Positions 9,317 through 64,000 of a stretch of 64,000 nt of DNA are shown in pieces. This DNA comes from Eledone cirrhosa (taxonomy: Eukaryota): positions 76,136,001-76,200,000 of the forward strand of contig OZ024745.1 of assembly GCA_964016885.1 (NCBI GenBank). Direction: 5' to 3'. The notes below the pieces were generated by a model. It saw only the letters and a list, made by a program, of their open reading frames with translations, had not been told where the DNA came from and did not search any database. A program made the translations under genes and the position numbers. Position 1 is the stretch's first letter; every line of letters starts with the position of its first letter.

Positions 9317-9440
9317 TCTTATAGTCATTTATTCAAAACATGCTACATGTATGTCAGGAAAAACCATCCTCAAAGCATATTATTTTAATTGTTTCAATCA
9401 CTGAAATAAGGCTGAAAGATTAGCATTAGATATGACTTAA

Positions 9441-23688: not shown

Positions 23689-23924
23689 TTAAATGAATAC
23701 ATTTTATACTACTTAGGTACATATCTGTCTGTCTATTATATATATATATATATATCAAACAAGAACTCATTTTCTAGTAGTCACACATTTAGAAGAATAT
23801 TTATGACTATTTGATATGGTCAAAAGTGGAAGACAGAAAGACAGTTGAGCTGTAACAAGTTAATGTTGCAATGTAGTAAAACCTGATAATAATGTAAACA
23901 GCTGGAATTTTGAGAAATCAATTC

Positions 23925-38518: not shown

Positions 38519-39892
38519 TCATCATCATCATCATCATCATCATTTTACGTCCGCTTTTCCCTGCTTGCAAGGGTGGGACGGGTCTTATTCAGCACAGCAT
38601 CTCTCCATTCGTCACGGTCCCTCGTCATCTCCACCGTGAGCTTCAATGATCTGAGGTCTGTTCTCACCACCTCCGCCCATGTTTTTCGTGGTCTACCTCT
38701 ACCACGTCTTCCTTCAACTGGCATTTGCTGGCACTTCTTCACCCATCGGTCATCCTCCATGCGCATCACATGTCCATACCACCCCAGTCTCCTCTCCCGT
38801 ACACTACATTCTATCCCTCTCAGACACAGTTTCTCTCTCAACACATTTATGCTGGGTCGTTCACGCACATTTACACTGCACATCCAACGGCGCATGCTTG
38901 CCTCATTTCTCTCCAGCCGTCGCATATCTTCTGCGGTAGCTGCCCATGTCTCACTACCATGCAGCATCGCGCTCCTCACACAGGCATCATACAACCGGCC
39001 TTTCGTACGCAGGGAGAAACCCTTCTTTGTCAACAGAGGAAGCAGCTCCCTAAACTTCTTCCAACCCGTCCTTATTCTAGATACTATGGCCTCGGAACAC
39101 CCTCCTCCCATGCTAATCTGATCTCCTAGGTACCGGAAGCTATCCACCACTTCTATAGCGCCCTCTCGCATTTGAAAAATGTGTCTATCAGTGCGACTTC
39201 TACTGTCTAATTTCCCTGTACATCTACTGCATACATATTTCTCCCTACCTGTTAGTTTGCCTGCTATCCCGCTACATCTCTTGTGTACCCAGGACCTACA
39301 TTGTGTGCATTTTATAGAATTTATGCCAGTTCCTTTTCTGCATATCGAACATGGCCATTTCCCTGACGGAATCAGGGTTTTGTCCTCTTTTCTACTCATC
39401 AACACTTTTGTCTTAGCTAGATTTACTCTCAGTCCTCTTGCTTCCAACTGCTGTTTCCATAGCCGGAATTTATTCTCTAGCTCCTCTACTGATTCTGCCA
39501 TAAGAGCCAGATCGTCAGCATAGAGAAGTTCCCATGGACAGCCAGTCTTAAACTCCTCTGTTATGGCTTGGAGGACTATAATGAACAAGAGCGGGTTGAG
39601 GACCGAACCCTGATGTACTCCTACTTGTATCTGGAATTCCTCACTAAACTCCATTCCTACCCTGACTTTACTGAGAGTACCTCTGTACAAAGTTTGCACT
39701 GTCCTTACAAGCCATTCCTCAACACCCAGCTTCCTTAGGGAGCACCAGATGACAGATCGGGGTACCCTATCAAAGGCCTTCTCTAGGTCAACAAAAGCTA
39801 AGTATAGTGGCTTATTCTTCTCTAAGAACCTCTCTTGCATTTGTCTCACCAAGAAGAGGGCATCTGTTGTACTCTTCCCAGGCACAAAACCA
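38519..39892 (-). mobile_element. RTE LINE, subfamily B (5'-truncated); the ORF runs up to the (GAT)n tail
   Basis: ORF 38545-39885 has [23 protein letters not shown] and the PHD-like insert. It is clearly diverged from subfamily A. The stop codon is adjacent to the (CAT)8 tract at 38519-38543. Confidence 0.93.
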
Positions 39893-39895
39893 CAA

Positions 39896-39963
39896 TATGT
39901 ATGTATATATATATATATGTATGTATATATATATATATGTATGTATATATATATATATGTATG

Positions 39964-40010
<47 letters not shown>

Positions 40011-41127
40011 GTATGTATATATATATATATATGTATGTATATATATATATATGTATGTATATATATATGTATGTATGTATATATATATGTATGTATGTAT
40101 ATATATATGTATGTATGTATATATATATATATGTATGTATATATATATATATGTATGTATATATATATATATGTATGTATATATATATATATGTATGTAT
40201 ATATATATATATGTATGTATATATATATATGTATGTATATATATATATATGTATATATATATATGTATGTATATATATATATATGTATGTATATATATAT
40301 ATGTATGTATATATATATATGTATGTATATATATATGTATGTATATATATATGTATGTATATATATATGTATGTATATATATATGTATGTATATATATAT
40401 GTATGTATATATATATGTATGTATATATATATGTATGTATATATATATGTATGTATATATATATATATGTATGTATATATATATATATGTATGTATATAT
40501 ATATGTATGTATGTATATATATATATATGTATGTATATATATATGTATGTATGTATATATATATATATGTATGTATATATATATGTATGTATATATATAT
40601 ATATGTATGTATGTATGTATATATATATGTATGTATGTATATATATATATATGTATGTATATATATATATATGTATGTATGTATATATATATGTATGTAT
40701 GTATATATATATATATATATGTATGTATATATATATGTATGTATATATATATGTATGTATATATATATGTATGTATATATATATGTATGTATATATATAT
40801 GTATGTATATATATATGTATGTATATATATATGTATGTATATATATATGTATGTATATATATATGTATGTATATATATATGTATGTATATATATATGTAT
40901 GTATATATATATGTATGTATATATATATGTATGTATATATATATGTATGTATATATATATGTATGTATATATATATGTATGTATATATATATGTATGTAT
41001 ATATATATGTGTATATATATATGTATGTATATATATATGTATATATATGTATGTATGTATATATATATATGTATGTATATATATATATGTATGTATATAT
41101 ATATATATATGTATGTATATATGTATG

Positions 41128-41163
<36 letters not shown>

Positions 41164-41229
41164 TGTATGTATATATATATGTATATATATATATGTATGT
41201 ATATATATATGTATATATATATATGTATG

Positions 41230-41269
<40 letters not shown>

Positions 41270-41395
41270 TATATGTATGTATATATATGTATATATATAT
41301 ATATGTATATATATGTTTGTATGTATATATATATATGTATGTATATATATATATGTATGTATATATATATATGTATGTATATATATATATGTATG

Positions 41396-41429
<34 letters not shown>

Positions 41430-41663
41430 TGTATGTATATATATATATGTATGTATATATATATATATGTGTATGTATATATATATGTGTATGTATATAT
41501 ATATGTATGTATATATATATGTGTATATATATATGTATGTATATATATATATATGTATATGTGTATGTATATATATATGTATGTATATATATATGTATGT
41601 ATATATATATGTAAGTATATATATATGTATGTATATATGTATGTATGTATATATATATGTATG

Positions 41664-41724
<61 letters not shown>

Positions 41725-41851
41725 GTATGTATATATATATATGTATGTATATATGTATATATATATATATATGTATGTATATATATATGTATATATATAT
41801 ATGTATGTATATATATATGTATGTATATATATATGTATGTATATATATATG

Positions 41852-41908
<57 letters not shown>

Positions 41909-41915
41909 CTGTATG

Positions 41916-41946
<31 letters not shown>

Positions 41947-41999
41947 GTATGTATATATATATATATATATATGTATGTATATATATATATATATATATG

Positions 42000-42050
<51 letters not shown>

Positions 42051-42051
42051 G

Positions 42052-42092
<41 letters not shown>

Positions 42093-42097
42093 GTATG

Positions 42098-42130
<33 letters not shown>

Positions 42131-42135
42131 GTATG

Positions 42136-42180
<45 letters not shown>

Positions 42181-42339
42181 GTATGTATGTATATATATAT
42201 ATGTATATGTATGTATATATATATATATATATATATGTATATGTATGTATGTATGTATATATATATGTATATATATGTATGTATATATATATATATATAT
42301 GTATATGTATGTATGTATATATATATATATATATGTATG

Positions 42340-42387
<48 letters not shown>

Positions 42388-42432
42388 TATATATATGTAT
42401 ATATATGTATATATATGTATATATATATATAT
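39896..42432. repeat. ~2.5 kb compound (TA)n/(TATG)n microsatellite
   Basis: Direct inspection; source of the spurious YI/MYV-rich ORFs. Confidence 0.95.
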
Positions 42433-42582
42433 GGTCAGTCAATGGCAACATTGAGGACCGAGTAAGTTAGATCGCAGATATATATATATAAAAGACAGCG
42501 AGAAGCGAAAACCAACCAAACAGTGTGTTCTGTTATAAATTCTGGCAATATTACGCAAATATGACCCTCCCCAAATATAACA
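42433..42582 (+). mobile_element. 5'-truncated copy of the short pLTR-like element
   Basis: GGTCAGTCAATGGCAACATTGAGGACCGA...ATGACCCTCCCCAAATATAACA. Reverse-complement homologue of 36886-37046, flanked by (TA)n on both sides. Confidence 0.7.
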
Positions 42583-44949
<2,367 letters not shown>

Positions 44950-46760
44950 TAACTTTGAATAACTTTGAAATGTTTTGGCCAGTATTGGCCCAGGCCATGT
45001 CTAACTTAATAGCACCACCTGGCGAAGTCTTTCAATTCAGGATTTGGGCACCATGGCCCATTCGAGAAGAGAATTACTGTTTGCGGAGACATATCCGGGT
45101 GTGGGTGGTTTGTCCGGGATTACTTGGAGGAATTTGTCCAAAGACTTCTTGAATTTTGTGTGGTCAGTTTCTGTTTTGACGTGTCCTGGTATGATGTTGA
45201 AGAGAGCAGGGCCGATTGAGGTGAAATAATTGTGCCGTATTGTTGTTATGAGTTGCGATTTAGATTTTTGAATGGGACGGATAGCACTGGGCCCAAGCCT
45301 TGGGTGTATCTTGAAGGCGATGCCAACATCATTTGGGCAGTGATGATGGAACATTTTCCACATCATGCAGATAATATAACGCTCACGGCGACGTTGGAGT
45401 GAGTAAAGTTTCAGGTTTTCTAATCGACCCCAGTAGTCAAGGTCTGACATGCCATCTATCTTTTTCGTGATTGCCCTTTGAGGAGCTTCAAGTTTCATGA
45501 TACTTTGTTTCGTGTGGGGAGACCACAGTGGACAACAGTATTCAAGGTGTGGTCGGGCAAAAGTAGAGAAGAGAAGGATAATGGTGCGGGAATCTCTCGA
45601 CTGGAAGGTTCTGAGGATCCAGGAACACATTCTGCGGGCCATGTCAACTTTGCTGCTTATATGCGTGGTCCAGCTTATGTTGCTGTCCACGGTTACTCCC
45701 AAGTCTCTGATGTTGTTAGATGCCACGAGAGTTTCCCCGGAGGGAAGGGAGTACGGGAGTTTCAGAGCATCCTCTTTTCCAAAGTGGATCAGTTCGAATT
45801 TGTCTTCGTTCAGTAACATGTTGTTCTTTTCTGCCCATTGGGTAACAGCCAGTAGGTCTGACTGAAGGCTTATCCGGTCATCCACGCCATTGATGACCTT
45901 TTGGAGCTTGGAATCATCAGCGAAAATTTTAATGTTGCTGTGTTTGATGATGTCAGTGATGTCATTAATATAGATGATGAAGAGAAGTGGGCCCAACACA
46001 GTGCCTTGTGGGACCCCACTACTGACTTTGGCTGGGCTTGATTTGACTCCCTCAACTACAACATGTTGGGTTCTGTTTGACAGGAAGCTCTTGATCCACT
46101 GCTGCAGCTTTCCAGTGACACCAATATTGGACAGCTTTCTCAGTAGAATGTTATGATCAACCCTGTCAAAGGCCTTGCTGAAATCAAGGTAGATAACATC
46201 AGTGTTGGAACCCTCTCCCAAGGCTCTCAAAATGTCATCAAAGTGATGCAGTAGCTGCGTCAGGCAATCCCTTCCATTACGGAATCCATGCTGGTTGGAG
46301 TTCAGCATATTGTTACTCTCAAGGAAGTGGGTCATTCGCGATCTCACCACTCTCTCAAATACCTTAATGATATGAGAGGTGAGTGAGATTGGACGGTAAT
46401 TCACGGCAAGGGATTTGTTTCCCTTTTTGAAAACTGGGACAACAGACTGGGATAGAAGGTTTTCTGGCACATATCCAGCATCCAGTGAGTTCCGCCACAG
46501 ATTGGCAAGAGGAGATGCAAGTTGGTGTTGACACGCCTTCAAGACACAAGCAGGGAACCTATCGGGACCTACTGCTGAATTATGCTTGATTTCCTTTATT
46601 GCCGCCAAGACATCAGGGGCGCCAAACGTTATGTCTGATAAGGTGTAATGGGGAGTAACATCGCCGATACAGCCCAGATCGGCCATATCAGGATTGCTGA
46701 AAACAGAGCAGTATTGTTTCTGCAGTATCTCACCCATGGTTTTAGCATTGTCTTGAAGAA
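44950..46760 (-). mobile_element. CR1-group LINE (5'-truncated, RT frame intact), 3' tail (TTCAAAGTTA)2
   Basis: ORF 45037-46779 has NYRPISLTS, NQHGFR, YLDFSKAFDRVDH, GVPQGTVLGP, FADD, RDLGV, RPHLEYC and LYSLQRRRER. Tandem 10-mer tail at 44950-44969. Confidence 0.92.
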
Positions 46761-46764
46761 AGTG

Positions 46765-49700
46765 TACTGAAGAAAACAAGTAATGACAGTAGCACAGAAA
46801 TCAGAGAAATAAGAGAAAGTAATAGGATAAAAAGGAAAAGGAGATGGGAGACTAAGGACAAAGAGAATAACCAAGACGAACACACAGACACACAAAATAG
46901 GGTAGATAACAACATTGAGCCAGTGGAAAGAGACAGGAGTAATTATGAGAGACATAGAAACAACCATGAAGCTGAGGCTGCTGGTGGAAATAGAAATAGA
47001 AATAACACAACTAACAATAATAATAGCACTAGTACACATAAAGCAGCAGCCTGGAACTCTCCGTTTTATAACCCCTCCGATAAATCATTCGACCTACGAC
47101 GAGTCCACGCCACGACTTTGCCATTTAACAAACGCACGCAGTTGCCGTCGCAGGTCGATGAACAAACAGAAGCACAATTTAGTATAGCTAAATCCGAACT
47201 TAGAAATATTATAGAGCAGTATAGCAAGAAGCATAATAGAATAGAGGCCCAGCAACTGGGAGAAGAATCTGCAAATGGCTTGCGTAAGCTCATGCAGCGC
47301 TCGCGTAATGGAGAGATAGCATGTTTTCCAACAGACAAGTCTGGCAGAATGTCGGTTGACAGCCTGCCAAACTACATCCAGGCAATGCAACCCCACATCA
47401 CTAACACAAGAGAGGTAACACCACAGGAGCATGAGGATAGAGAAAAAGCCCTCAATGCCCATATGGTGATGTGGACGAATATAATGCAGCCCAACAAAAG
47501 GACTGCCAACAACTTCCAGGCCTGGAACAATGACGTGCCGGCGTTATATGGGCTTTGAAAAGACCATAAAACGGGCTGGGACCCTGTCACGGGACCACCA
47601 ACACGACCAGTCTGTGGGGCTAACATTGCTAGTAACTACAGACTGTCCTACTTCCTCTCCCTGATCATACGCCCCATCATTGAGATGTCCCCAGATGTGT
47701 GTGACAGCACGGAGGACCTCCTCAGCGGAATCGGCGCGGGTAACCGATCTGGGGACCTAACAAACTGCATAATAGGCAGTATGGATGTTGTGTCCCTGTA
47801 TCCATCTATTGACGTGGATTTTGCTGTGGAGAAATGCGTAGAAATGATCAGCGAGAGCAAGGTTGAGTTCCGTGGGATTGATACCAGTGAGCTGGGACTT
47901 CTACTTAAGCTTACCCATAGTAATAGTTACCTAGACACTTATGACCTTAGCAACCTGTGCCCTACAAGACCAGCAAGAGGCAGACCACCTACCATTACCT
48001 CAATGGCCAAGAAAACCCACACAGATAGATGGAACGGGTGGACCAGAGCCATACGGACACCCGAAAACCACGATGAACTGAAGAAAATGATTGCACATGC
48101 AGTAGGGGCCAGCATAAAATTAACCCTTAAGGAACATATGTTCAAATTTAATGGTAAAACATATGCCCAAGAGGAAGGAGCAGCCATTGGTGTTAGCATT
48201 GTAGGCGACATAGCTAACTTATTCATGGTATGGTGGGACAGTAGACTTAAACAAAAACTTAATGAACAATTAGAAGACAGCTTAACCCTGATAATGTACT
48301 CCCGCTACGTAGATGATATAAACATCGTAGTTAAGACACCCCCACTAAAGAACAGTCAGGAACTAGAGAAAAACACAATGGAAAGCATCCAGCAAATAGC
48401 AAACTCCATCCACCAGAGCATTAGAGTTACTATAGACTACCCAAGTAGACACCCCAACCATCGATTACCTGTACTAGACACAGAGCTCTGGTTAGATACC
48501 ATTAACAACCAAAAACAAATCCTCCATTCCCATTATGCCAAACCCATGACTTCCAAACATCTGATCCACCGAAACTCGGCCATTTCGGACCATACCAAAA
48601 TCAACATACTGATTGCGGATTTGGTACGGGTGATGAGAAATGTGTCCCGCATGTGCAACCCCGAAGAACTAGAGAGACACATACAACACTTCATCCACCG
48701 TATGCAGTTCTCTGGCTACAATCAGAGAGATAGAATCAGAGTGTATAAAGGAGCCAGAACCAAATGGGAAAAAATGGTAAATAATGACATAAATGGGACC
48801 TGCCCCTTGTATAGGAGCAAATTTTGGAATAGAATAGAAAGAACTAGGAACAAGGCCAATAGAATAAACTCATGGTATTATAGCAATAAATACCAGAGTG
48901 TAATGTTCATCAATACAACCCCTAGAGGCGAACTAGCCTACAAATTTAGAAGGGCCTTAAATAAACATAATCTCAATATTAAGATAGTAGAAAGACCTGG
49001 TACCTCCGTAAAAACACTTATTAGCAAGACATACCCATTCCAAAGACCCTCATGTATAGATAAGAAATGTATAACCTGTAAAATAAGCCCCCATATTAAC
49101 TGTAAAACTAGAAATGTAGTGTATAGCATAAGATGTACTGAAGGACAATGTAGAAACAAAAATATAGTGTACATAGGTGAGACAGCTCGTAGTATAGGGG
49201 AACGAATAAATGAACACTGGCGAGACCTCCAAGATAATAAAGAATCATCTGTGCTCTACCAACATGCTAAGATAGAACACAGGGGTAGATTAGAGAGCAT
49301 AGAAATAAAAATAGAATCCACGCACAGAAAAGACGCAATGTTTAGGCAAATTACAGAGGCAGTAAGCATAAAAGAATTAAAACCAAAATTAAATAGAAAA
49401 TATGAGTGGAACAGCAACATCACAACTTACAATTAAGGACAAAATGAAAACACACACACACATAGAACAAACAACTTACAATTGAAAACACACACAAAAT
49501 GAAAACACACACAGGACAAAATGAAAACACACACACACATAGAACAAACAACCAACCAACAATAAATAAATAAATAAATAAATAAATAAACAAATAGAAA
49601 AATATAAATAGAAAAATAGAAAAATGAACACAAACACACACAGACACCCGGATGTGGCGCATGCGCAAACTGAGCACACAACACACACACAGAAACAAAA

Positions 49701-49960
49701 TGGCGTAGGATAGAAGAAAGGAAAGGCACAGAAACAAAGAAAGGAATCCCCAGTCACTGAAGAGGTCACAGAGTGTGTGACGAAAGGACTATGACTATAT
49801 ATATAAACAACTATCTGGTTGTGGAACCAACCAACCAACCAGAAATTTATAAGTTTGTAGATTTGTAAATTTATAAATTTATAAATATATAATAAATTGA
49901 AGTGAAAGCAACTGGTGCGTGTGTTTCTTATTGGCAACATGACCCTCCCAAAGTATAACA
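46765..49960 (+). mobile_element. Penelope-like retroelement: RT, Cys linker and C-terminal GIY-YIG endonuclease; 5'-truncated, one in-frame TGA, 3' pLTR region with hammerhead
   Basis: ORFs 46923-47558 and 47685-49436 share a frame, separated only by TGA 47556-47558. Motifs: TDKSG (DKG), LYGL*KDHK, GPPTRPV, SMDVVSLYPSI, RYVDD, LPVLD, CxxxxCxxC, VVYSIRC...YIGETARSIGERINEH. Confidence 0.93.
49752..49796 (+). ncRNA. Minimal type I hammerhead ribozyme motif in the Penelope 3' pLTR
   Basis: AGTCA-CTGAAGA-G-GTCACA(GAGTG)TGTGAC-GAAA-G(GA)C-TA-TGACT. Stem I AGTCA/TGACT, 6-bp stem II, minimal stem III. Predicted cleavage after A49791. Confidence 0.75.
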
Positions 49961-50472
49961 ATATATGTATATATATATATGTATATATATATATGTATAT
50001 ATATGTATATGTATATATATATATGTATATGTATATATATATATGTATATGTATATATGTATATATATGTATATGTATATATATGTATATGTATATATAT
50101 ATATATGTATATATATGTATATGTATATATATATATATGTATATATATATGTATATATATATGTATATATATATGTATATATATATATGTATATATATAT
50201 ATGTATATGTATATATATGTATATATGTATATATATATATGTATATATATATATGTATATGTATATATAATATGTATATATATATGTATATATATATATG
50301 TATATGTATATATATATATGTATATATATATGTATATATGTATATATATATATGTATATATATATATGTATATATGTATATGTATATATATATGTATATA
50401 TGTATATATATATGTATATATATATATATGTATATATATATATGTATATATATATATGTATATATATATATG

Positions 50473-50517
<45 letters not shown>

Positions 50518-51087
50518 GTATATATATATATATGTATATATATATGTATATATGTATATGTATATATATATGTATATGTATATATATATGATATATAATA
50601 TGTATATATATATGTATATATATATATGTATGTAATATATATTTGTATATATATATGTATATATATATATGTATATATATATATGTATATATATATATGT
50701 ATATATATATATGTATATATATGTATATATGTATATATGTATATGTATGTATATATGTATATGTATATATGTATATGTATATGTATATATATATGTATAT
50801 ATATATGTATATATGTATATATGTATATGAATATATATATATGTATATATATATGTATATATGTATATATATATATGTATATATGTATATGTATATATAT
50901 ATGTATATGTATATATATATATGTAATGTATATATGTATATGTATATATATATGTATATAAGTATATGTATATATATATGTATATATATTTATATATGTA
51001 TATATATATGTATATATATATGTATATATATATGTATATATATATGTATATATATATGTATATATATATGTATATATATATGTATAA

Positions 51088-51122
<35 letters not shown>

Positions 51123-51175
51123 ATGTATATGTATATATGTATATATATATGTATATATATGTGTATATTTATATG

Positions 51176-51206
<31 letters not shown>

Positions 51207-51471
51207 GTATATATATGTGTATATGTATATATATATGTATATATATATATATGTGTATATATATATGTGTATATATATATGTGTATATATATATAAATTA
51301 TATATGTATCTATATATATATGTATATATATATATACATGTATATATATATATATAGTATATGTATATATATATATATATATATGTTATATATATATATT
51401 ATGTATATATATATATATATGTATATATATATGTATATATTATGTATATGTATATATGTATATTATATATG

Positions 51472-51504
<33 letters not shown>

Positions 51505-51850
51505 GTATATATATATAATATTATGATTTATATATATATGTAAATATATAAAAATATATATATATATGTATATGTATATATGTATATAGTATATATGTAT
51601 ATATTATATTATGTATATATATATATATGTATATATATATATAGTATATATGTATATATGTATTATATGTATATTATGATATATGTATATATGTATATAT
51701 ATATGTATATATATAAGTATATATATATATGTATATATGTATATATATGTATATATGTATATATGTATATGTATGTATATATGTATATGTATATATGTAT
51801 ATGTATATGTATATATATATATGTATATATATATGTATATATGTATATGT
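49961..51850. repeat. ~1.9 kb (TA)nTG microsatellite
   Basis: Direct inspection. Confidence 0.95.
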
Positions 51851-53004
51851 AATCAAGCATAATTCAGCAGTAGGTCCCGATAGGTTCCCTGCTTGTGTCT
51901 TGAAGGCGTGTCAACACCAACTTGCTTCTCCTCTTGCCAATCTGTGGCGGAACTCACTGATGCTGGATATTGTGCCAGAAAACCTTCTATCCCAGTCTGT
52001 TGTCCCAGTTTTCAAAAAGGGAAACAAATCCCTTGCCGTGAATTACCGTCCAATCTCACTCACCTCTCATATCATTAAGGTATTTGAGCGAGTGGTGAGA
52101 TCGCGAATGACCCACTTCCTTGAGAGTAACAATATGCTGAACTCCAACCAGCATGGATTCCGTAATGGAAGGGATTGCCTGACGCAACTACTGCATCACT
52201 TTGATGACATTTTGAGAGCCTTGGGAGAGGGTTCCAACACTGATGTTATCTACCTTGATTTCAGCAAGGCCTTTGACAGGGTTGATCATAACATTCTACT
52301 GAGAAAGCTGTCCAATATTGGTGTCACTGGAAAGCTGCTGCAGTGGATCAAGAGCTTCCTGTCAAACAGAACCCAACATGTTGTAGTTGAGGGAGTCAAA
52401 TCAAGCCCAGCCAAAGTCAGTAGTGGAGTCCCACAAGGCACTGTGTTGGGCCCACTTCTCTTCATCATCTATATTAATGACATCACTGACATCATCAAAC
52501 ACAGCAACATTAAAATTTTCGCTGATGATTCCAAGCTCCAAAAAGGTCATCAATGGCGTGGATGACCGGATAAGCCTTCAGTCAGACCTACTGGCTGTTA
52601 CCCAATGGGCAGAAAAGAACAACATGTTACTGAACGAAGACAAATTCGAACTGATCCACTTTGGAAAAGAGGATGCTCTGAAACTCCCGTACTCCCTTCC
52701 CTCCGGGGAAACTCGTGGCATCTAACAACATCAGAGACTTGGGAGTAACCGTGGACAGCAACATAAGCTGGACCACGCATATAAGCAGCAAAGTTGACAT
52801 GGCCCGCAGAATGTGTTCCTGGATCCTCAGAACCTTCCAGTCGAGAGATTCCCGCACCATTATCCTTCTCTTCTCTACTTTCGCCCGACCACACCTTGAA
52901 TACTGTTGTCCACTGTGGTCTCCCCACACGAAACAAAGTATCATGAAACTTGAAGCTCCTCAAAGGGCAATCACGAAAAAGATAGATGGCATGTCAGACC
53001 TTGA
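51851..53004 (+). mobile_element. CR1-group LINE, second copy, inverted relative to 44950-46760 and cut off by the gap
   Basis: Near-identical RT ([13 protein letters not shown] ... KKIDGMSDL) with a few 1-nt indels. Confidence 0.92.
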
Positions 53005-53204
53005 NNNNNNNNNNNNNNNNNNNNNNNNNNNNNNNNNNNNNNNNNNNNNNNNNNNNNNNNNNNNNNNNNNNNNNNNNNNNNNNNNNNNNNNNNNNNNNNN
53101 NNNNNNNNNNNNNNNNNNNNNNNNNNNNNNNNNNNNNNNNNNNNNNNNNNNNNNNNNNNNNNNNNNNNNNNNNNNNNNNNNNNNNNNNNNNNNNNNNNNN
53201 NNNN
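53005..53204. other. Assembly gap (200 N)
   Basis: Run of n characters. Confidence 1.
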
Positions 53205-56200
53205 AGTATGTACACGTACATACATATATGTATACCGACGTACAGTAGTATGTATATATATATATACATACATGCACACATATATATATGCACGTATGGA
53301 TTCACCGAACATTTATTATAATGCTCGGTGTGTTTGTAAACAAACATCCCGTATTAAGCCGTAGTGTCTAGCAACCACCGTTGCTCGTTTGTTCAACACT
53401 GACAAAGGAACGCTGTACTAGTTTCAAGCTTGTTAGCTATCGTCAGCAACGTATACCTTCCTGCCAGATTGTTGAACGTATATACTTACCTTATGCATAT
53501 TAACGGCTGAATAGCCCAATATGCATATCGAGTGGGTTAATCGGCCGGGTGCACCGAAAAACGATAAACGGAAAAAATGAAACGATATTTCATTTCCACT
53601 CTTAGTACGGCTGTTACTTAAAATATAAGTATGTTACACGTACATACATATATGTATACCGACGTACAGTAGTAATGTATATATATATATACATACATGC
53701 ACACATATATATATGCACGTATGGATTCACCGAACATTTATTATAATGCTCGGTGTGTTTGTAAACAAACATCCCGTATTAAGCCGTAGTGTCTAGCAAC
53801 CACCGTTGCTCGTTTGTTCAACACTGACAAAGGAACGCTGTACTAGTTTCAAGCTTGTTAGCTATCGTCAGCAACGTATACCTTCCTGCTGATTGTTGAA
53901 CGTATATACTTACCTTATGCATATTAACGGCTGAATAGCCCAATATGGCATATCGAGTGGGTTAATCGGCCGGGTGCACCGAAAACGATAAACGGAAAAA
54001 ATGAAACGATATTTCATTTCCCACTCTTAGTACGGCTGTTACTTAAATATAAGTTGTACACGTACATACATATATGTATACCGACGTACAGTAGTATGTA
54101 TATATATATATACATACATGCACACATATATATATGCACGTATGGATTCACCGAACATTTATTATAATGCTCGGTGTGTTTGTAAACAAACATCCCGTAT
54201 TAAGCCGTAGTGTCTAGCAACCACCGTTGCTCGTTTGTTCAACACTGACAAAGGAACGCTGTACTAGTTTCAAGCTTGTTAGCTGATCGTCAGCAACGTA
54301 TACCTTCCTGCCAGATTGTTGAACGTATATACTTACCTTATGCATATTAACGGCTGAATAGCCCAATATGCCATATCGAGTGGTTAATCGGCCGGGTGCA
54401 CCGAAACGATAAACGGAAAAAATGAAACGATATTTCATTTCCCACTCTTAGTACGGCTGTTACTTAAATATAAGTATGTACACGTACATACATATATGTA
54501 TACCGACGTACAGTAGTATGTATATATATATATACATACATGCACACATATATATATGCACGTATGGATTCACCGAAACATTTATTATAATGCTCGGTGT
54601 GTTTGTAAACAAACATCCCGTATCTAAGCCGTAGTGTCTAGCAACCACCGTTGCTCGTTTGTTCAACACTGACAAAGGAACGCTGTACTAGTTTCAAGCT
54701 TGTTAGCTATCGTCAGCAACGTATACCTTCCTGCCAGATTGTTGAACGTATATACTTACCTTATGCATATTTAACGGCTGAATAGCCCAATATGCATATC
54801 GAGTGGGTTAATCGGCCGGGTGCACCGAAAACGATAAACGGAAAAAATGAAACGATATTTTCATTTCCACTCTTAGTACGGCTGTTACTTAAATATAAGT
54901 ATGTACACGTACATACATATATGTATACCGACGTACAGTAGTATGTATATATATATATACATACATGCACACATATATATGCACGTATGGATTCACCGAA
55001 CATTTATTATAATGCTCGGTGTGTTTGTAAACAAACATCCCGTATTAAGCCGTAGTGTCTAGCAACCACCGTTGCTCGTTTGTTCAACACTGACAAAGGA
55101 ACGCTGTACTAGTTTCAAGCTTGTTAGCTATCGTCAGCAACGTATACCTTCCTGCCAGATTGTTGAACGTATATACTTACCTTATGCATATTAACGGCTG
55201 AATAGCCCAATATGCATATCGAGTGGGTTAATCGGCCGGGTGCACCGAAAACGATAAACGGAAAAAATGAAACGATATTCATTTCCCCACTCTTAGTACG
55301 GCTGTTACTTAAATATAAGTATGTACACGTACATACATATATGTATACCGACGTACAGTAGTATGTATATATATATATACATACATGCACACATATATAT
55401 ATGCACGTATGGATTCACCGAACATTTATTATAATGCTCGGTGTGTTTGTAAACAAACATCCCGTATTAAGCCGTAGTGTCTAGCAAACCACCGTTGCTC
55501 GTTTGTTCAACACTGACAAAGGAACGCTGTACTAGTTTCAAGCTTGTTAGCTATCGTCAGCAACGTATACCTTCCTGGCCAGATTGTTGAACGTATATAC
55601 TTACCTTATGCATATTAACGGCTGAATAGCCCAATATGCATATCGAGTGGGTTAATCGGCCGGGTGGCACCGAAAACGATAAACGGAAAAAATGAAACGA
55701 TATTTCATTTCCCACTCTTAGTACGGCTGTTACTTAAATATAAGTATGTACACGTACATACATATATGTATACCGACGTACAGTAGTATGTATATATATA
55801 TATACATACATGCACACATATATATATGCACGTATGGATTCACCGAACATTTATTATAATGCTCGGTGTGTTTGTAAACAAACATCCCGTATTAAGCCGT
55901 AGTGTCTAGCAACCACCGTTGCTCGTTTGTTCAACACTGACAAAGGAACGCTGTACTAGTTTCAAGCTTGTTAGCTATCGTCAGCAACGTATACCTTCCT
56001 GCCAGATTGTTGAACGTATATACTTACCTTATGCATATTAACGGCTGAATAGCCCAATATGCATATCGAGTGGGTAATCGGCCGGGTGCACCGAAAACGA
56101 TAAACGGAAAAAATTGAACCGATATTTCATTTCCCACTCTTAGTACGGCTGTTACTTAAATATAAGTATGTACACGTACATACATATATGTTACCGACGT

Positions 56201-59200
56201 ACAGTAGTATGTATATATATATATACATACATGCACACATATATATATGCACGTATGGATTCACCGAACATTTATTATAATGCTCGGTGTGTTTGTAAAC
56301 AAACATCCCGTATTAAGCCGTAGTGTCTAGCAACCACCGTTGCTCGTTTGTTCAACACTGACAAAGGAACGCTTGTACTAGTTTCAAGCTTGTTAGCTAT
56401 CGTCAGCAACGTATACCTTCCTGCCAGATTGTTGAACGTATATACTTACCTTATGCAAATTAACGGCTGAATAGCCCAATATGCATATCGAGTGGGTTAA
56501 TCGGACCGGGTGCACCGAAACGATAAACGGAAAAAATGAAACGATATTTCATTTCCCACTCTTAGTACGGCTGTTACTTAATTATAAAGTATGTACACGT
56601 ACATACATATATGTATACCGACGTACAGTAGTATGTATATATATATATACATACATGCACACATATATATATGCACGTATGGATTCACCGAACATTTATT
56701 ATAATGCTCGGTGTGTTTGTAACAAACATCCCGTATAAGCCGTAGTGTCTAGCAACCACCGTTGCTCGTTTGTTCAACACTGACAAAGGAACGCTGTACT
56801 AGTTTCAAGCTTGTTAGCTATCGTCAGCAACGTATACCTTTCCTGCCAGATTGTTGAACGTATATACTTACCTTATGCATATTAACGGCTGAATAGCCCA
56901 ATATGCATATCGAGTGGGTTAATCGGCCGGGTGCACCGAAAAACGATAAACGGAAAAAATGAAACGATATTTCATTTCCCACTCTTAGTACGGCTGTTAC
57001 TTAAAATATAAGTATGTACAACGTACATACATATATGTATACCGACGTACAGTAGTATGTATATATAATATATACATACATGCACACATATATATATGCA
57101 CGTATGGATTCACCGAACATTTATTATAATGCTCGGTGTGTTTGTAAACCAAACATCCCGTATTAAGCCGTAGTGTCCATAGCAACCACCGTTGCTCGTT
57201 TGTTCAACACTGACAAAGGAACGCTGTACTAGTTTCAAGCTTGTTAGCTATCGTCAGCAACGTATACCTTCCTGCCAGATTGTTGAACTTATATACTTAC
57301 CTTATGCATATTAACGGCTGAATAGCCCAATATGCATATCGAGTGGGTTAATCGGCCGGGTGCACCGAAAACGATAAACGGAAAAAATGAAACGATATTT
57401 CATTTCCCACTCTTAGTACGGCTGTTACTTAAATATAAGTATGTACACGTACATACATATATGTATACCGACGTACAGTAGTATGTATATATATATATAC
57501 ATACATGCACACATATATATATGCACGTATGGATTCACCGAACATTTATTATAATGCTCGGTGTGTTTGTAAACAAACATCCCGTATTAAGCCGTAGTGT
57601 CTAGCAACCACCGTTGCTCGTTTGTTCAACACTGACAAAGGAACGCTGTACTAGTTTCAAGCTTGTTAGCTATCGTCAGCAACGTATACCTTCCTGCCAG
57701 ATTGTTGAACATATATACTTACCTTATGCATATTAACGGCTGAATAGCCCAATATGCATATCGAGTGGGTTAATCGGCCGGGTGCACCGAAAACGATAAA
57801 CGGAAAAAAATGAAACGATATTTCATTTCCCACTCTTAGTACGGCTGTTACTTAAATATAAGTATGTACACGTACATACATATATGTATACCGACGTACA
57901 GTAGTATGTATATATATATATACATACATGCACACATATATATATGCACGTATGGATTCACCGAACATTTATTATAATGCTCGGTGTGTTTGTAAACAAA
58001 CATCCCGTATTAAGCCGTAGTGTCTAGCAACCACCGTTGCTCGTTTGTTCAACACTGACAAAGGAACGCTGTACTAGTTTCAAGCTTGTTAGCTATCGTC
58101 AGCAACGTATACCTTCCTGCCAGATTGTTGAACGTATATACTTACCTTATGCATATTAACGGCTGAATAGCCCAATATGCATATCGAGTGGGTTAATCGG
58201 CCGGGTGCACCGAAAACGATAAACGGAAAAAATGAAACGATATTTCATTTCCCACTCTTAGTACGGCTGTTACTTAAATATAAGTATGTACACGTACATA
58301 CATATATGTATACCGACGTACAGTAGTATGTATATATATATATACATACATGCACACATATATATATGCACGTATGGATTCACCGAACATTTATTATAAT
58401 GCTCGGTGTGTTTGTAAACAAACATCCCGTATTAAGCCGTAGTGTCTAGCAACCACCGTTGCTCGTTTGTTCAACACTGACAAAGGAACGCTGTACTAGT
58501 TTCAAGCTTGTTAGCTATCGTCAGCAACGTATACCTTCCTGCCAGATTGTTGAACGTATATACTTACCTTATGCATATTAACGGCTGAATAGCCCAATAT
58601 GCATATCGAGTGGGTTAATCGGCCGGGTGCACCGAAAACGATAAACGGAAAAAATGAAACGATATTTCATTTCCCACTCTTAGTACGGCTGTTACTTAAA
58701 TATAAGTATGTACACGTACATACATATATGTATACCGACGTACAGTAGTATGTATATATATATATACATACATGCACACATATATATATGCACGTATGGA
58801 TTCACCGAACATTTATTATAATGCTCGGTGTGTTTGTAAACAAACATCCCGTATTAAGCCGTAGTGTCTAGCAACCACCGTTGCTCGTTTGTTCAACACT
58901 GACAAAGGAACGCTGTACTAGTTTCAAGCTTGTTAGCTATCGTCAGCAACGTATACCTTCCTGCCAGATTGTTGAACGTATATACTTACCTTATGCATAT
59001 TAACGGCTGAATAGCCCAATATGCATATCGAGTGGGTTAATCGGCCGGGTGCACCGAAAACGATAAACGGAAAAAATGAAACGATATTTCATTTCCCACT
59101 CTTAGTACGGCTGTTACTTAAATATAAGTATGTACACGTACATACATATATGTATACCGACGTACAGTAGTATGTATATATATATATACATACATGCACA

Positions 59201-59976
59201 CATATATATATGCACGTATGGATTCACCGAACATTTATTATAATGCTCGGTGTGTTTGTAAACAAACATCCCGTATTAAGCCGTAGTGTCTAGCAACCAC
59301 CGTTGCTCGTTTGTTCAACACTGACAAAGGAACGCTGTACTAGTTTCAAGCTTGTTAGCTATCGTCAGCAACGTATACCTTCCTGCCAGATTGTTGAACG
59401 TATATACTTACCTTATGCATATTAACGGCTGAATAGCCCAATATGCATATCGAGTGGGTTAATCGGCCGGGTGCACCGAAAACGATAAACGGAAAAAATG
59501 AAACGATATTTCATTTCCCACTCTTAGTACGGCTGTTACTTAAATATAAGTATGTACACGTACATACATATATGTATACCGACGTACAGTAGTATGTATA
59601 TATATATATATACATACATGCACACATATATATATGCACGTATGGATTCACCGAACATTTATTATAATGCTCGGTGTGTTTGTAAACAAACATCCCGTAT
59701 TAAGCCGTAGTGTCTAGCAACCACCGTTGCTCGTTTGTTCAACACTGACAAAGGAACGCTGTACTAGTTTCAAGCTTGTTAGCTATCGTCAGCAACGTAT
59801 ACCTTCCTGCCAGATTGTTGAACGTATATACTTACCTTATGCATATTAACGGCTGAATAGCCCAATATGCATATCGAGTGGGTTAATCGGCCGGGTGCAC
59901 CGAAAACGATAAACGGAAAAAATGAAACGATATTTCATTTCCCACTCTTAGTACGGCTGTTACTTAAATATAAGTA
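53205..59976 (-). repeat. Tandem array of a 422-bp hammerhead-containing unit, left arm (~16 units, ribozyme on the minus strand)
   Basis: Landmark TGCACCGAAA at 57361, 57783, 58206, 58628 and 59050 gives a period of 422-423. Each unit contains ACGCTGTACTAGTTTCAAGCTTGTTAGCTATCGTCAGCAACGT. Confidence 0.97.
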
Positions 59977-62900
59977 CTGTACGTCGGTATACATATATGT
60001 ATGTACGTGTACATACTTATATTTAAGTAACAGCCGTACTAAGAGTGGGAAATGAAATATCGTTTCATTTTTTCCGTTTATCGTTTTCGGTGCACCCGGC
60101 CGATTAACCCACTCGATATGCATATTGGGCTATTCAGCCGTTAATATGCATAAGGTAAGTATATACGTTCAACAATCTGGCAGGAAGGTATACGTTGCTG
60201 ACGATAGCTAACAAGCTTGAAACTAGTACAGCGTTCCTTTGTCAGTGTTGAACAAACGAGCAACGGTGGTTGCTAGACACTACGGCTTAATACGGGATGT
60301 TTGTTTACAAACACACCGAGCATTATAATAAATGTTCGGTGAATCCATACGTGCATATATATATGTGTGCATGTATGTATATATATATATACATACTACT
60401 GTACGTCGGTATACATATATGTATGTACGTGTACATACTTATATTTAAGTAACAGCCGTACTAAGAGTGGGAAATGAAATATCGTTTCATTTTTTCCGTT
60501 TATCGTTTTCGGTGCACCCGGCCGATTAACCCACTCGATATGCATATTGGGCTATTCAGCCGTTAATATGCATAAGGTAAGTATATACGTTCAACAATCT
60601 GGCAGGAAGGTATACGTTGCTGACGATAGCTAACAAGCTTGAAACTAGTACAGCGTTCCTTTGTCAGTGTTGAACAAACGAGCAACGGTGGTTGCTAGAC
60701 ACTACGGCTTAATACGGGATGTTTGTTTACAAACACACCGAGCATTATAATAAATGTTCGGTGAATCCATACGTGCATATATATATGTGTGCATGTATGT
60801 ATATATATATATACATACTACTGTACGTCGGTATACATATATGTATGTACGTGTACATACTTATATTTAAGTAACAGCCGTACTAAGAGTGGGAAATGAA
60901 ATATCGTTTCATTTTTTCCGTTTATCGTTTTCGGTGCACCCGGCCGATTAACCCACTCGATATGCATATTGGGCTATTCAGCCGTTAATATGCATAAGGT
61001 AAGTATATACGTTCAACAATCTGGCAGGAAGGTATACGTTGCTGACGATAGCTAACAAGCTTGAAACTAGTACAGCGTTCCTTTGTCAGTGTTGAACAAA
61101 CGAGCAACGGTGGTTGCTAGACACTACGGCTTAATACGGGATGTTTGTTTACAAACACACCGAGCATTATAATAAATGTTCGGTGAATCCATACGTGCAT
61201 ATATATATGTGTGCATGTATGTATATATATATATACATACTACTGTACGTCGGTATACATATATGTATGTACGTGTACATACTTATATTTAAGTAACAGC
61301 CGTACTAAGAGTGGGAAATGAAATATCGTTTCATTTTTTCCGTTTATCGTTTTCGGTGCACCCGGCCGATTAACCCACTCGATATGCATATTGGGCTATT
61401 CAGCCGTTAATATGCATAAGGTAAGTATATACGTTCAACAATCTGGCAGGAAGGTATACGTTGCTGACGATAGCTAACAAGCTTGAAACTAGTACAGCGT
61501 TCCTTTGTCAGTGTTGAACAAACGAGCAACGGTGGTTGCTAGACACTACGGCTTAATACGGGATGTTTGTTTACAAACACACCGAGCATTATAATAAATG
61601 TTCGGTGAATCCATACGTGCATATATATATGTGTGCATGTATGTATATATATATATACATACTACTGTACGTCGGTATACATATATGTATGTACGTGTAC
61701 ATACTTATATTTAAGTAACAGCCGTACTAAGAGTGGGAAATGAAATATCGTTTCATTTTTTCCGTTTATCGTTTTCGGTGCACCCGGCCGATTAACCCAC
61801 TCGATATGCATATTGGGCTATTCAGCCGTTAATATGCATAAGGTAAGTATATACGTTCAACAATCTGGCAGGAAGGTATACGTTGCTGACGATAGCTAAC
61901 AAGCTTGAAACTAGTACAGCGTTCCTTTGTCAGTGTTGAACAAACGAGCAACGGTGGTTGCTAGACACTACGGCTTAATACGGGATGTTTGTTTACAAAC
62001 ACACCGAGCATTATAATAAATGTTCGGTGAATCCATACGTGCATATATATATGTGTGCATGTATGTATATATATATATACATACTACTGTACGTCGGTAT
62101 ACATATATGTATGTACGTGTACATACTTATATTTAAGTAACAGCCGTACTAAGAGTGGGAAATGAAATATCGTTTCATTTTTTCCGTTTATCGTTTTCGG
62201 TGCACCCGGCCGATTAACCCACTCGATATGCATATTGGGCTATTCAGCCGTTAATATGCATAAGGTAAGTATATACGTTCAACAATCTGGCAGGAAGGTA
62301 TACGTTGCTGACGATAGCTAACAAGCTTGAAACTAGTACAGCGTTCCTTTGTCAGTGTTGAACAAACGAGCAACGGTGGTTGCTAGACACTACGGCTTAA
62401 TACGGGATGTTTGTTTACAAACACACCGAGCATTATAATAAATGTTCGGTGAATCCATACGTGCATATATATATGTGTGCATGTATGTATATATATATAT
62501 ACATACTACTGTACGTCGGTATACATATATGTATGTACGTGTACATACTTATATTTAAGTAACAGCCGTACTAAGAGTGGGAAATGAAATATCGTTTCAT
62601 TTTTTTCCGTTTATCGTTTTCGGTGCACCCGGCCGATTAACCCACTCGATATGCATATTGGGCTATTCAGCCGTTAATATGCATAAGGTAAGTATATACG
62701 TTCAACAATCTGGCAGGAAGGTATACGTTGCTGACGATAGCTAACAAGCTTGAAACTAGTACAGCGTTCCTTTGTCAGTGTTGAACAAACGAGCAACGGT
62801 GGTTGCTAGACACTACGGCTTAATACGGGATGTTTGTTTACAAACACACCGAGCATTATAATAAATGTTCGGTGAATCCATACGTGCATATATATATGTG

Positions 62901-63036
62901 TGCATGTATGTATATATATATATACATACTACTGTACGTCGGTATACATATATGTATGTACGTGTACATACTTATATTTAAGTAACAGCCGTACTAAGAG
63001 TGGGAAATGAAATATCGTTTCATTTTTTCCGTTTAT
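59975..63036 (+). repeat. Same 422-bp array, inverted right arm (~7.25 units, ribozyme on the plus strand)
   Basis: Reverse complement of the left arm. CTGACGA cores at 60198, 60620, 61042, 61464, 61886, 62308 and 62731. Confidence 0.97.
60167..60253 (+). ncRNA. Type I hammerhead ribozyme motif (representative of 23 copies) with extended stem I
   Basis: ACGTTG(60192-97)-CTGACGA-T-AGCT(AACA)AGCT-T-GAAA-C(TA)G-TA-CAGCGT(60229-34). Stem I is extended by AAGG/CCTT, CTGGCA/TGTCAG and GTTCAACA/TGTTGAAC. Predicted cleavage at GUA, after 60228. Confidence 0.8.
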
Positions 63037-63138
63037 ATATATATATTTGTATATATATATATATTTGTATATATATATATATTTGTATATATATATATAT
63101 TTGTATATATATATATATATGTATATGTATGTATATAT

Positions 63139-63188
<50 letters not shown>

Positions 63189-63228
63189 GTATGTATATAT
63201 ATGTATATATGTTTATATATGTATATAT
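63037..63228. repeat. (TA)n/(TATTTG) microsatellite directly after the array end
   Basis: Direct inspection. Confidence 0.9.
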
Positions 63229-64000
63229 CTATCCCCCACATTTACGTATAGACATATCTTCTCACACACACACACTCACATACTTACACCTTCATGCATT
63301 CTCCCACACACTTAAACAGGCATGTAAAAAAAAAAAAAACCTTTTAAAGGGAGACTACTCTTTATCCACCTAACCTTAACTCTTTGACATTAGAGATAGA
63401 ACAGATACTCTATACCATTTCCTGTCAGCATGACTTGGCAAGCTATTTAGAACACTGATTTAACCACTTTACTTCCCTCCGAAGAAGAGATATTATCTCG
63501 AAAATTAAGGACATTTAAATAAACCTAAGGTAAAAGACTAATTGTCAACAATATCTTTTGCATTTGCATTCTTTATTCTATGTCCATACCTGCATTGTTT
63601 TGGCTTTATTATACATATACAAACGTTTATACCTCATTACACAATGCTTCAAGTGAACTATAACCTCCTCCTATATATATTTATGTATATATATGCAGAT
63701 ATATGTATGTTTATATATGTATATATATATATATAAATGAAAAGTATAGAAATTGTTGTAGCGAGAAGCTAACAGTATTCCAAAACATATGTCAAAATGG
63801 GAAAATAGTTAACATAAGATATGGGAAAAATAATTCAGACTCAATTCAAAAGGAATCAGGATATAGATTTATCCAACAGAATTTAGAGAAATCCAGGGAA
63901 AAATCAATAGAGCCTTAACTCATGATAAAACAAAGTCTAAAGTACTCAACCTTCAATTTGGGACAACTTCAAAAGCTCTGTATAGTCTTGAAAAGACTAT

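Follow-up and report, generated by a model that had tools for sequence, protein, structure and literature searches.

A 64,000-nucleotide stretch of the Eledone cirrhosa genome (GenBank assembly GCA_964016885.1, contig OZ024745.1, positions 76,136,001 to 76,200,000 of the forward strand; the window) carries, at 53205-63036, an array of 422-bp units, each with a hammerhead ribozyme motif. On balance, our findings suggest that this array is probably one two-armed insertion of a dispersed non-coding hammerhead repeat, likely written into the genome by Penelope-like element (PLE) machinery and probably copied from one circular RNA monomer. The repeat very likely belongs to the retrozymes. The observations that carry this reading are the architecture of the array, the fixed ends of the insertions, their target, the read-through of the predicted cut site, covariation in the ribozyme stems and private variants shared among units. 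A first-pass annotation, made from the sequence of the window, had described a retrozyme-like satellite with a type I hammerhead. Covariation, dispersal and a predicted preference for double hammerheads support the retrozyme and the type I fold; the term satellite is misleading, because local amplification does not appear to be the main origin of the array, which looks like a two-armed insertion retrotransposed into (TA)n.

The 422-bp periodicity proposed for the interval was recovered by Tandem Repeats Finder, which resolves it as two 422-bp arrays. All 23 expected hammerhead cores, one per unit, are present, 7 on the plus strand and 16 on the minus strand. The units do not form the single tandem run first described, and instead lie in two oppositely oriented blocks with their 5' ends together (Table 1). 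With unit position 1 set at window position 60229, the first base after the predicted cut between GUA and C, the plus arm begins at unit position 169 and the minus arm at about 208, with a 2-base overlap. The left arm reaches its 3' end at unit position 211, at the edge of an assembly gap and adjoining the short end typical of the family (212-216), while the right arm stops at the long end of the family, unit position 275, and is followed by (TA)n. The 43-nt minimal motif is exact in 21 of the 23 units and the 87-nt extended stem in 18. Differences among the 21 full units are mainly small indels, denser towards the gap and probably due to sequencing error, with 0-2 substitutions per unit and no fixed difference between the two arms. 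GC content is 0.37-0.39 in counting windows lying wholly in the array, and the earlier view that the units hold no credible open reading frame (ORF) stands, the longest ATG-initiated ORF being 51 aa and the longest stop-free frame 53 aa.

Within the representative unit, the hammerhead comprises stem I (60192-60197 paired with 60229-60234), the core CUGACGA from 60198, GAAA, a stem II of 3 bp closed by the 6-nt loop UAACAA, and the palindromic ACUAGU stem III. The predicted fold agrees with the annotated stem I (ACGUUG/CAGCGU), its extension and stem II; the U.U at positions 10.1-11.1, the palindrome and the predicted cut after A60228 are likewise as described. The conserved elements CUGAnGA...GAAA...UH stand in type I order, and the core columns are invariant across 19 motifs. 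The G10.1-C11.1 pair that closes stem II is absent from the window unit, which has the U.U instead, and sister families carry G-C or C-G at this position. Axolotl HHR_Amex2 carries the same U.U at the base of stem II; its monomer cleaved to 22% and its dimer more efficiently (PMC7229834, excerpted text).

The core by itself is weak evidence, because a core-only descriptor also matches 529 of 20,000 shuffled units. The check suggested with the annotation, a search of the unit with hammerhead models, came out negative: Rfam models give no match to the isolated motif at E values up to 10, and across 52-64 kb only miRNA hairpin matches below the gathering score appear among the 150 of 350 matches listed. 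Since Rfam misses the motif and the core-only descriptor is common in shuffles, we rely on its relatives. Genome-wide, the exact 36-nt core occurs in 1,838 copies (control 0), which confirms the first half of another suggested check, that the unit is multi-copy and dispersed; as to the second half, linkage to Penelope ORFs, none lies within 900 bases upstream of any of 786 motifs. A looser pattern with the same stem III gives 40,408 matches, compared with 17 for the reversed pattern, and a further 13,884 (control 0) come from a disjoint pattern in which stem III has other letters, for at least 54,000 related hammerhead motifs in all. Stem covariation had been named beforehand as one of the points on which the proposal could fail, and it is present: over 13 motifs, 92.3% of cells are paired and 12 of the 16 pairs have changed on both sides, a result that none of 500 shuffles reaches and that slid controls approach with at most 3 pairs. 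Stem III remains palindromic despite its change of letters (ACUAGU, ACGCGU or ACAUGU), and the 6-nt loop 2 and the loop 1 bulge are retained across related motifs. The case for a hammerhead therefore rests on the genome-wide excess together with the covariation.

Two further families extend this picture. A 466-bp sister family shows 65% identity to the unit over 183 nt, carries the canonical G10.1-C11.1 pair and matches the Rfam model HH9 (37.7 bits, E 1.3e-8). A 310-bp family, with 2,580 exact copies of one core, has no detectable similarity to the 422-bp unit outside the motif. Additionally, the 422-bp family includes older arrays with about 90% identity to the unit of the window, at locus L081 (at least 11 units) and at L083-L084 (about 37 units); they show patchwork variants and behave like satellites. 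At L076, an entire two-armed insertion has been tandemly duplicated, flanks included.

Constrained folding favors a double hammerhead, predicted at -182.7 kcal/mol compared with -171.5 kcal/mol for two monomers, which places the dimer 11 kcal/mol lower. Hammerhead repeats of Schistosoma also have a weak palindromic stem III that favors dimer cleavage, with a sequence different from that of the unit. The 422-nt monomer has a minimum free energy (MFE) of -150.4 kcal/mol as a linear molecule (z -8.0) and -146.0 kcal/mol as a circle, with 71% of its bases paired, part of this self-pairing stemming from TA-rich hairpins. The ribozyme of the 422-bp unit is likely to be active.

The ends of the insertions point to the machinery involved. 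Nine of the 12 best-matching loci consist of two divergent arms, with the outer end at unit position 271-275 on one and at 209-216 on the other; both run into (TA)n, and the position of the junction between them varies by locus. Exact joints of the long end to (TA)n number 439 genome-wide (control 0). Sixty further loci, taken from these by that joint (59 in list order and one later entry picked for its nearness to a PLE), comprise 24 with an inverted second arm, 5 with a short inverted stub, 18 with TA at the 5' side and 13 with other sequence. This mapping required the second arm to end within 12 nt of position 213, so that the ends are not independent and some arms were missed, such as that of L192; when second arms were sought with no end constraint, 23 of 23 stopped at 216-219, ahead of the TA run. 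Arm lengths range smoothly from 26 to 3,584 bases, as in a series of truncations. Similarly, the 466-bp family ends at 227-241 and 297-320, about 70 nt apart, and the 310-bp family at 130-132 and 164-168, about 35 nt apart. No pair of long terminal repeats (LTRs) was found in 72 mapped loci, where the (TA)n flanks would mask target-site duplications. Contigs of another sequencing run (X2), of unspecified kind, also carry head-to-head joints at many different positions among the best 15 of 44 listed. As a separate observation, 6 of 24 second-arm junctions in L164-L223 lie within the hammerhead core and stem II (unit positions 390-411), where polymerase stalling or template switching is possible.

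PLE hallmarks in the literature include (TA)n targets, a tail at one end of the insertion and a copy that is both inverted and 5'-truncated (bioRxiv 2021.04.23.441226, excerpted text). A purified PLE protein cleaves and extends both target strands, and the two internal RNA sites at which it starts mark the boundaries of the tail (PMC11167929). The 422-bp family displays this footprint, with an inverted 5'-truncated copy, a tail on one end and an AT-rich target. By analogy, the machinery is very likely of PLE type, a judgment from the footprint that does not pin down the helper PLE. The resemblance of the unit's tail to the 58-59-nt tails of resident PLEs does not name the helper either, because tail lengths vary among the retrozyme families.

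The arms also carry information on the template. The predicted cut site is crossed by 32 of the 60 long arms and by 18 of the 24 second arms; of 50 arms long enough to be informative, one stops within 10 nt of the site, compared with 2.5 expected if stops were uniform. Arms copied from a cut linear monomer would end at position 1. Because the arms cross this position without piling up, the template was intact there, as either a circle or an uncut multimer. Rare variants were classed in 89 contributing loci out of 109. The classification left out segments below 96% identity, the microsatellite at unit positions 112-222, columns close to gaps and any variant present in more than 3 loci. The rare variants comprise 19 found in all units of an insertion, 12 in part of the units, 122 in one unit of several and 72 unclassed. 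For instance, rare variants are common to all units in L080 (9 of 9), L204 (6 of 6) and L201 (3 of 3). The four changes of L201 (three A>G, one T>C) are in every unit of both arms and in no other copy in the assembly, which is what would be left if both polymerases had repeatedly copied a single RNA; the changes may also stem from a source array that was lost or not assembled. Taken together, we judge that the template was probably a circular RNA.

In the scheme that we infer, which extends to cleavage, expression, the circle and the helper enzyme, tandem transcripts would pair as double hammerheads through the palindromic stem III and be cut after each GUA, and the monomers would be ligated into circles. 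A PLE protein would then nick both strands of a (TA)n tract and prime reverse transcription at about unit positions 275 and 216, start sites that both end in UUAU and would be able to pair with the target. Each polymerase would travel upstream past the ligated cut site, in the window array about 7 and 16 times, and the two cDNA ends would be joined head to head through microhomology.

Candidate enzymes are present in the same genome. The window holds a 5'-truncated PLE that ends 3' in (TA)n and carries a minimal hammerhead of its own near 49750-49796; the best named match of this PLE is from Octopus vulgaris (68%). Pfam assigns no family to its pieces or to a full-length copy, and the element is called a PLE from homologues that have weak RVT_1 and GIY-YIG matches, from a weak intron-endonuclease match (E 0.17) and from sequence motifs that we take to be typical of PLEs. 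The family is young, with all 70 scored matches at 98-100% identity and frames of up to 1,294 aa. This first PLE family, also represented at L044-L073 and L110-L113, is abundant, has a 58-nt tail inside the start of its ORF and carries a linker cysteine motif ahead of the GIY-YIG domain, which suggests a Neptune/Nematis-like element by comparison with the description in bioRxiv 2021.04.23.441226 (excerpted text). Both resident families have ends in (TA)n and inverted pairs, and their tails measure 58 and 59 nt. They carry hammerheads of the minimal type with a long stem II (type as in the excerpted text of PMC4209133), unlike the canonical type of the unit. The window PLE is a candidate for the kind of helper required, though not homologous to the unit. 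A direct joint was not identified between one young PLE copy and 49 retrozyme loci. A 15-nt likeness between the unit tail and the PLE ORF start was rejected, as 84 of 2,000 shuffles equaled it, and the repeat is not itself an autonomous PLE, since no ORF with reverse transcriptase (RT) and GIY-YIG domains is attached to any of the 786 motifs in 202 loci.

Several observations weigh against this account. On the ribozyme side, the sequences behind the covariation are related and amount to three or four lineages; positions 10.1-11.1 are unpaired in 8 of 13 aligned motifs; the unit motif lacks an Rfam match, and the HH9 match of the 466-bp relative lies under the gathering score of 52. The unconstrained fold (-185.1 kcal/mol) pairs the core CUG with stem III, an inactive form, and in vitro cleavage was seen for just one of 9 retrozyme dimers from Xenopus (bioRxiv 2026.07.22.740005, excerpted text). 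On the insertion side, 31 of the 60 loci have no inverted arm, retrozyme tails vary (about 59, 70 and 35 nt), the unit has no homology to the pseudo-LTRs (pLTRs) of the two PLE families compared, and no PLE ORF lies within 900 bases upstream of the 786 motifs. On the template side, the L080 variant is not unique (8 matches at the locus and 5 dispersed); 12 variants occupy part of an array only, as in L042 (6 of 9 units on one arm); and variants alternate between units in L104 (2587-4901) and L098 (2228-3946), a pattern compatible with a dimeric circle or with subsequent duplication of two units. The A>G excess among shared variants is weak (6 of 19 compared with 15 of 122, Fisher p 0.04, post hoc), and 6 A>G compared with 2 T>C gives p 0.29.

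Some of these points would be expected if PLE machinery had copied an uncut linear multimeric transcript of a homogeneous source array, with the hammerhead slow or acting in a different step and no circle involved. We consider this unlikely while giving it more weight than any other alternative. The read-through of the cut site fits it equally well. The U.U closure, the inactive preferred fold and the variants common to part of an array only also speak for it, and long homogeneous arrays, that of the window included, exist as possible sources. It is a live alternative because hammerhead cleavage proved dispensable for PAc insertion in vitro, where unprocessed RNA was the main substrate (PMC11167929). 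Against it, every unit on both arms of L201 carries a variant for which the assembly offers no other source, and the 16-unit arm would require a 6.8-kb transcript to escape 16 hammerheads. Stem covariation across families implies selection for the fold, and retrozyme RNA in mussel and axolotl is mainly circular (PMC7229834, excerpted text).

If short PLE-type insertions had instead been expanded later in DNA by unequal exchange, slippage or gene conversion, the number of units and their homogeneity would say nothing about the RNA template. The older arrays at L083-L084 and L081, with their patchwork variants, favor such a process, as do the whole duplication of L076 and the alternation by two units in L104 and L098. 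Young loci nevertheless have multi-unit inverted arms with the same rare variants (L080, L204, L201), the arms of the window array lack any fixed difference, and arm lengths follow a truncation-like series. As a full explanation of the array this is improbable; the partial and alternating variants and the roughly 90% identity of the older arrays do indicate that DNA-level change acts later too.

The annotation had also raised the idea that the array is pLTR-derived, and the unit shows no homology to either of the two PLE families tested. A version of this idea in which the unit is the pLTR of an autonomous PLE family outside those sampled, and the arrays are ORF-less pLTR multimers, would account for the PLE-type ends. 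The comparison here covered two PLE families, and in Xenopus 24 of the 57 families of retrozymes have homology to Repbase elements, which are PLEs in nearly every case (bioRxiv 2026.07.22.740005, excerpted text). The absence of PLE ORFs upstream of the motifs and the minimal hammerheads of the resident PLEs, which differ from the unit's canonical type (PMC4209133, excerpted text), make it slightly less probable still. That the inversion and the unit number are assembly or library artefacts, from fold-back reads or collapsed repeats, is very improbable: the array does adjoin an N gap towards which indels rise, so the exact unit count may be off, yet junctions differ between loci, outer ends are fixed and asymmetric, the gap edge coincides with the expected short end, and other head-to-head joints occur in the X2 contigs.

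Within the family, the window array can be placed in a lineage. The window units depart from the family majority at unit positions 317 and 327, and the stretch holding both variants occurs in 29 copies at four loci: 19 exact copies here, 6 at C3, 3 at C15 and 1 at C7. At the other three loci, the aligned units are identical to the window unit except for mismatches where arms end. The window array is the largest of the four and may be the source of the other three insertions, the direction of copying being unreadable from sequence. A bolder reading, to which we give slightly less than an even chance, is that the genome directly records rolling-circle reverse transcription: a PLE enzyme would prime on both strands of a (TA)n break and two polymerases would circle one RNA produced by the ribozyme, so that its changes, perhaps including A-to-I edits, become fixed in each unit on both arms. 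At least three circle families, unrelated or distantly related and with more than 54,000 hammerheads, would use this route without detectable pLTR homology, and the window array may be a currently active source, with the three identical insertions as its daughters.

Comparison with known systems places the repeat among the metazoan non-LTR retrozymes, which form tandem non-coding units of 150-450 bp with GC below 50% and one type I hammerhead each, have a self-paired monomer and co-exist with PLEs (PMC7229834, excerpted text). At the level of sequence, the 422-bp repeat has the features of this class. Cleavage and circles were demonstrated for the retrozymes of that study, whereas the window family is known here from its sequence; mobilization from circles by PLEs was proposed there and a rolling-circle route drawn, a step that was not demonstrated. 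The terms "octopus", "cephalopod", "inverted" and "microsatellite" have 0 occurrences in its excerpted text, which mentions no cephalopod, inverted arms or microsatellite target. Newt satellite 2 resembles the unit in its weak palindromic stem III favoring dimer cleavage and differs in sequence (PMC7229834 and PMC4209133, excerpted text). For vertebrate non-LTR retrozymes, Li, Clavereau and Pollet (2026, bioRxiv 10.64898/2026.07.22.740005, excerpted text) also argue for a PLE origin and PLE-driven mobilization; in that text the case rests on co-occurrence and pLTR homology, with no mollusc among the named groups, while ours rests on the insertion footprint. PLEs with an endonuclease domain (EN+ PLEs; PMC11167929, with excerpted text of bioRxiv 2021.04.23.441226 and PMC4209133) share the inverted 5'-truncated copy, the one-ended tail, two internal RT starts, AT-rich or (TA)n targets and a hammerhead in the repeat. 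The 422-bp family differs from them in having no ORF, a canonical hammerhead, a tail of about 59 nt compared with 30-40 nt, and arms of many whole units.

In the giant squid genome, 235 Rfam hammerhead matches were counted (PMC6962438, excerpted text). Among the titles and abstract openings of the matches listed, a search lying outside Repbase, Dfam, subscription journals and preprint supplements, we found no cephalopod retrozyme and no such footprint for retrozymes. The class is already known; what is new is the variant of the 422-bp family that marks four loci, the window array being the largest. How animal retrozyme RNAs return to the genome has been an open question since the newt satellite work; PLEs figure as a strong candidate in PMC7229834 (excerpted text), the 2026 preprint contributes homology, and neither demonstrates the step. 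The insertions described here carry a PLE footprint, including two start sites like those measured in vitro (PMC11167929), and the same genome holds young PLE copies with long open frames, so that template, start sites and candidate enzymes are defined for a direct assay. They also reveal a large class of hammerhead repeats whose youngest family Rfam misses.

Table 1. Features of the 422-bp array, its relatives and the PLEs (window positions unless a locus is named)
Feature	Position	Strand	Description
Left arm	53205..59976	-	16.05 units of the 422-bp monomer, 16 hammerheads
Right arm	59975..63036	+	7.26 units, 7 hammerheads
Head-to-head (5'-5') junction	59975..60002		Lies within a self-complementary, TA-rich hairpin of the unit
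Representative type I hammerhead with extended stem I	60167..60253	+	Predicted cut after 60228
Cut-to-cut monomer, 422 nt	60229..60650	+	Predicted linear or circular RNA
Tail, about 59 nt	62978..63036	+	Unit positions 217-275, between the two family-wide 3' ends; long arm only
(TA)n-type microsatellite	63037..63232		Inferred insertion target
Assembly gap, 200 N	53005..53204		Place where the left (TA)n flank would be expected
5'-truncated PLE (first family)	46746..49961	+	RT and GIY-YIG frame, stop at 47556-47558
Second PLE family	L254-L283, L160		Different minimal hammerhead, short (TA) run in pLTR, 59-nt tail
466-bp sister retrozyme family	L073:4215-4875, L114-L143, L155		Arrays up to at least 31 units, tail about 70 nt
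310-bp retrozyme family	L154:5800-8000, L224-L253		Stem III ACGCGU, U.U or A-U at 10.1-11.1, tail about 35 nt

Other elements lie to the left of the array. A long interspersed nuclear element (LINE) on the minus strand (RVT_1, frame 45037-46800) joins the truncated PLE in head-to-head orientation near 46750-46770. The outer ends of the pair (44950-49961) both adjoin long (TA)n tracts; the arrangement looks like a two-armed chimera with the LINE as one arm, or a PLE inserted into the LINE. A second, near-identical piece of this LINE lies on the plus strand at 51852-53004, between a (TA)n tract and the gap. TA-rich microsatellites with strong strand skew occupy 39895-44944 (5.0 kb), adjoining a truncated RT frame, and 49961-51851 (1.9 kb). 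RTE-like LINE copies are present at 34903-36798, 7994-9328, 23914-25452 and 38545-39895; a pairwise comparison of the PLE protein with an RTE protein gave no match, and a 631-aa frame among these copies has a PHD-finger match after its RT domain.

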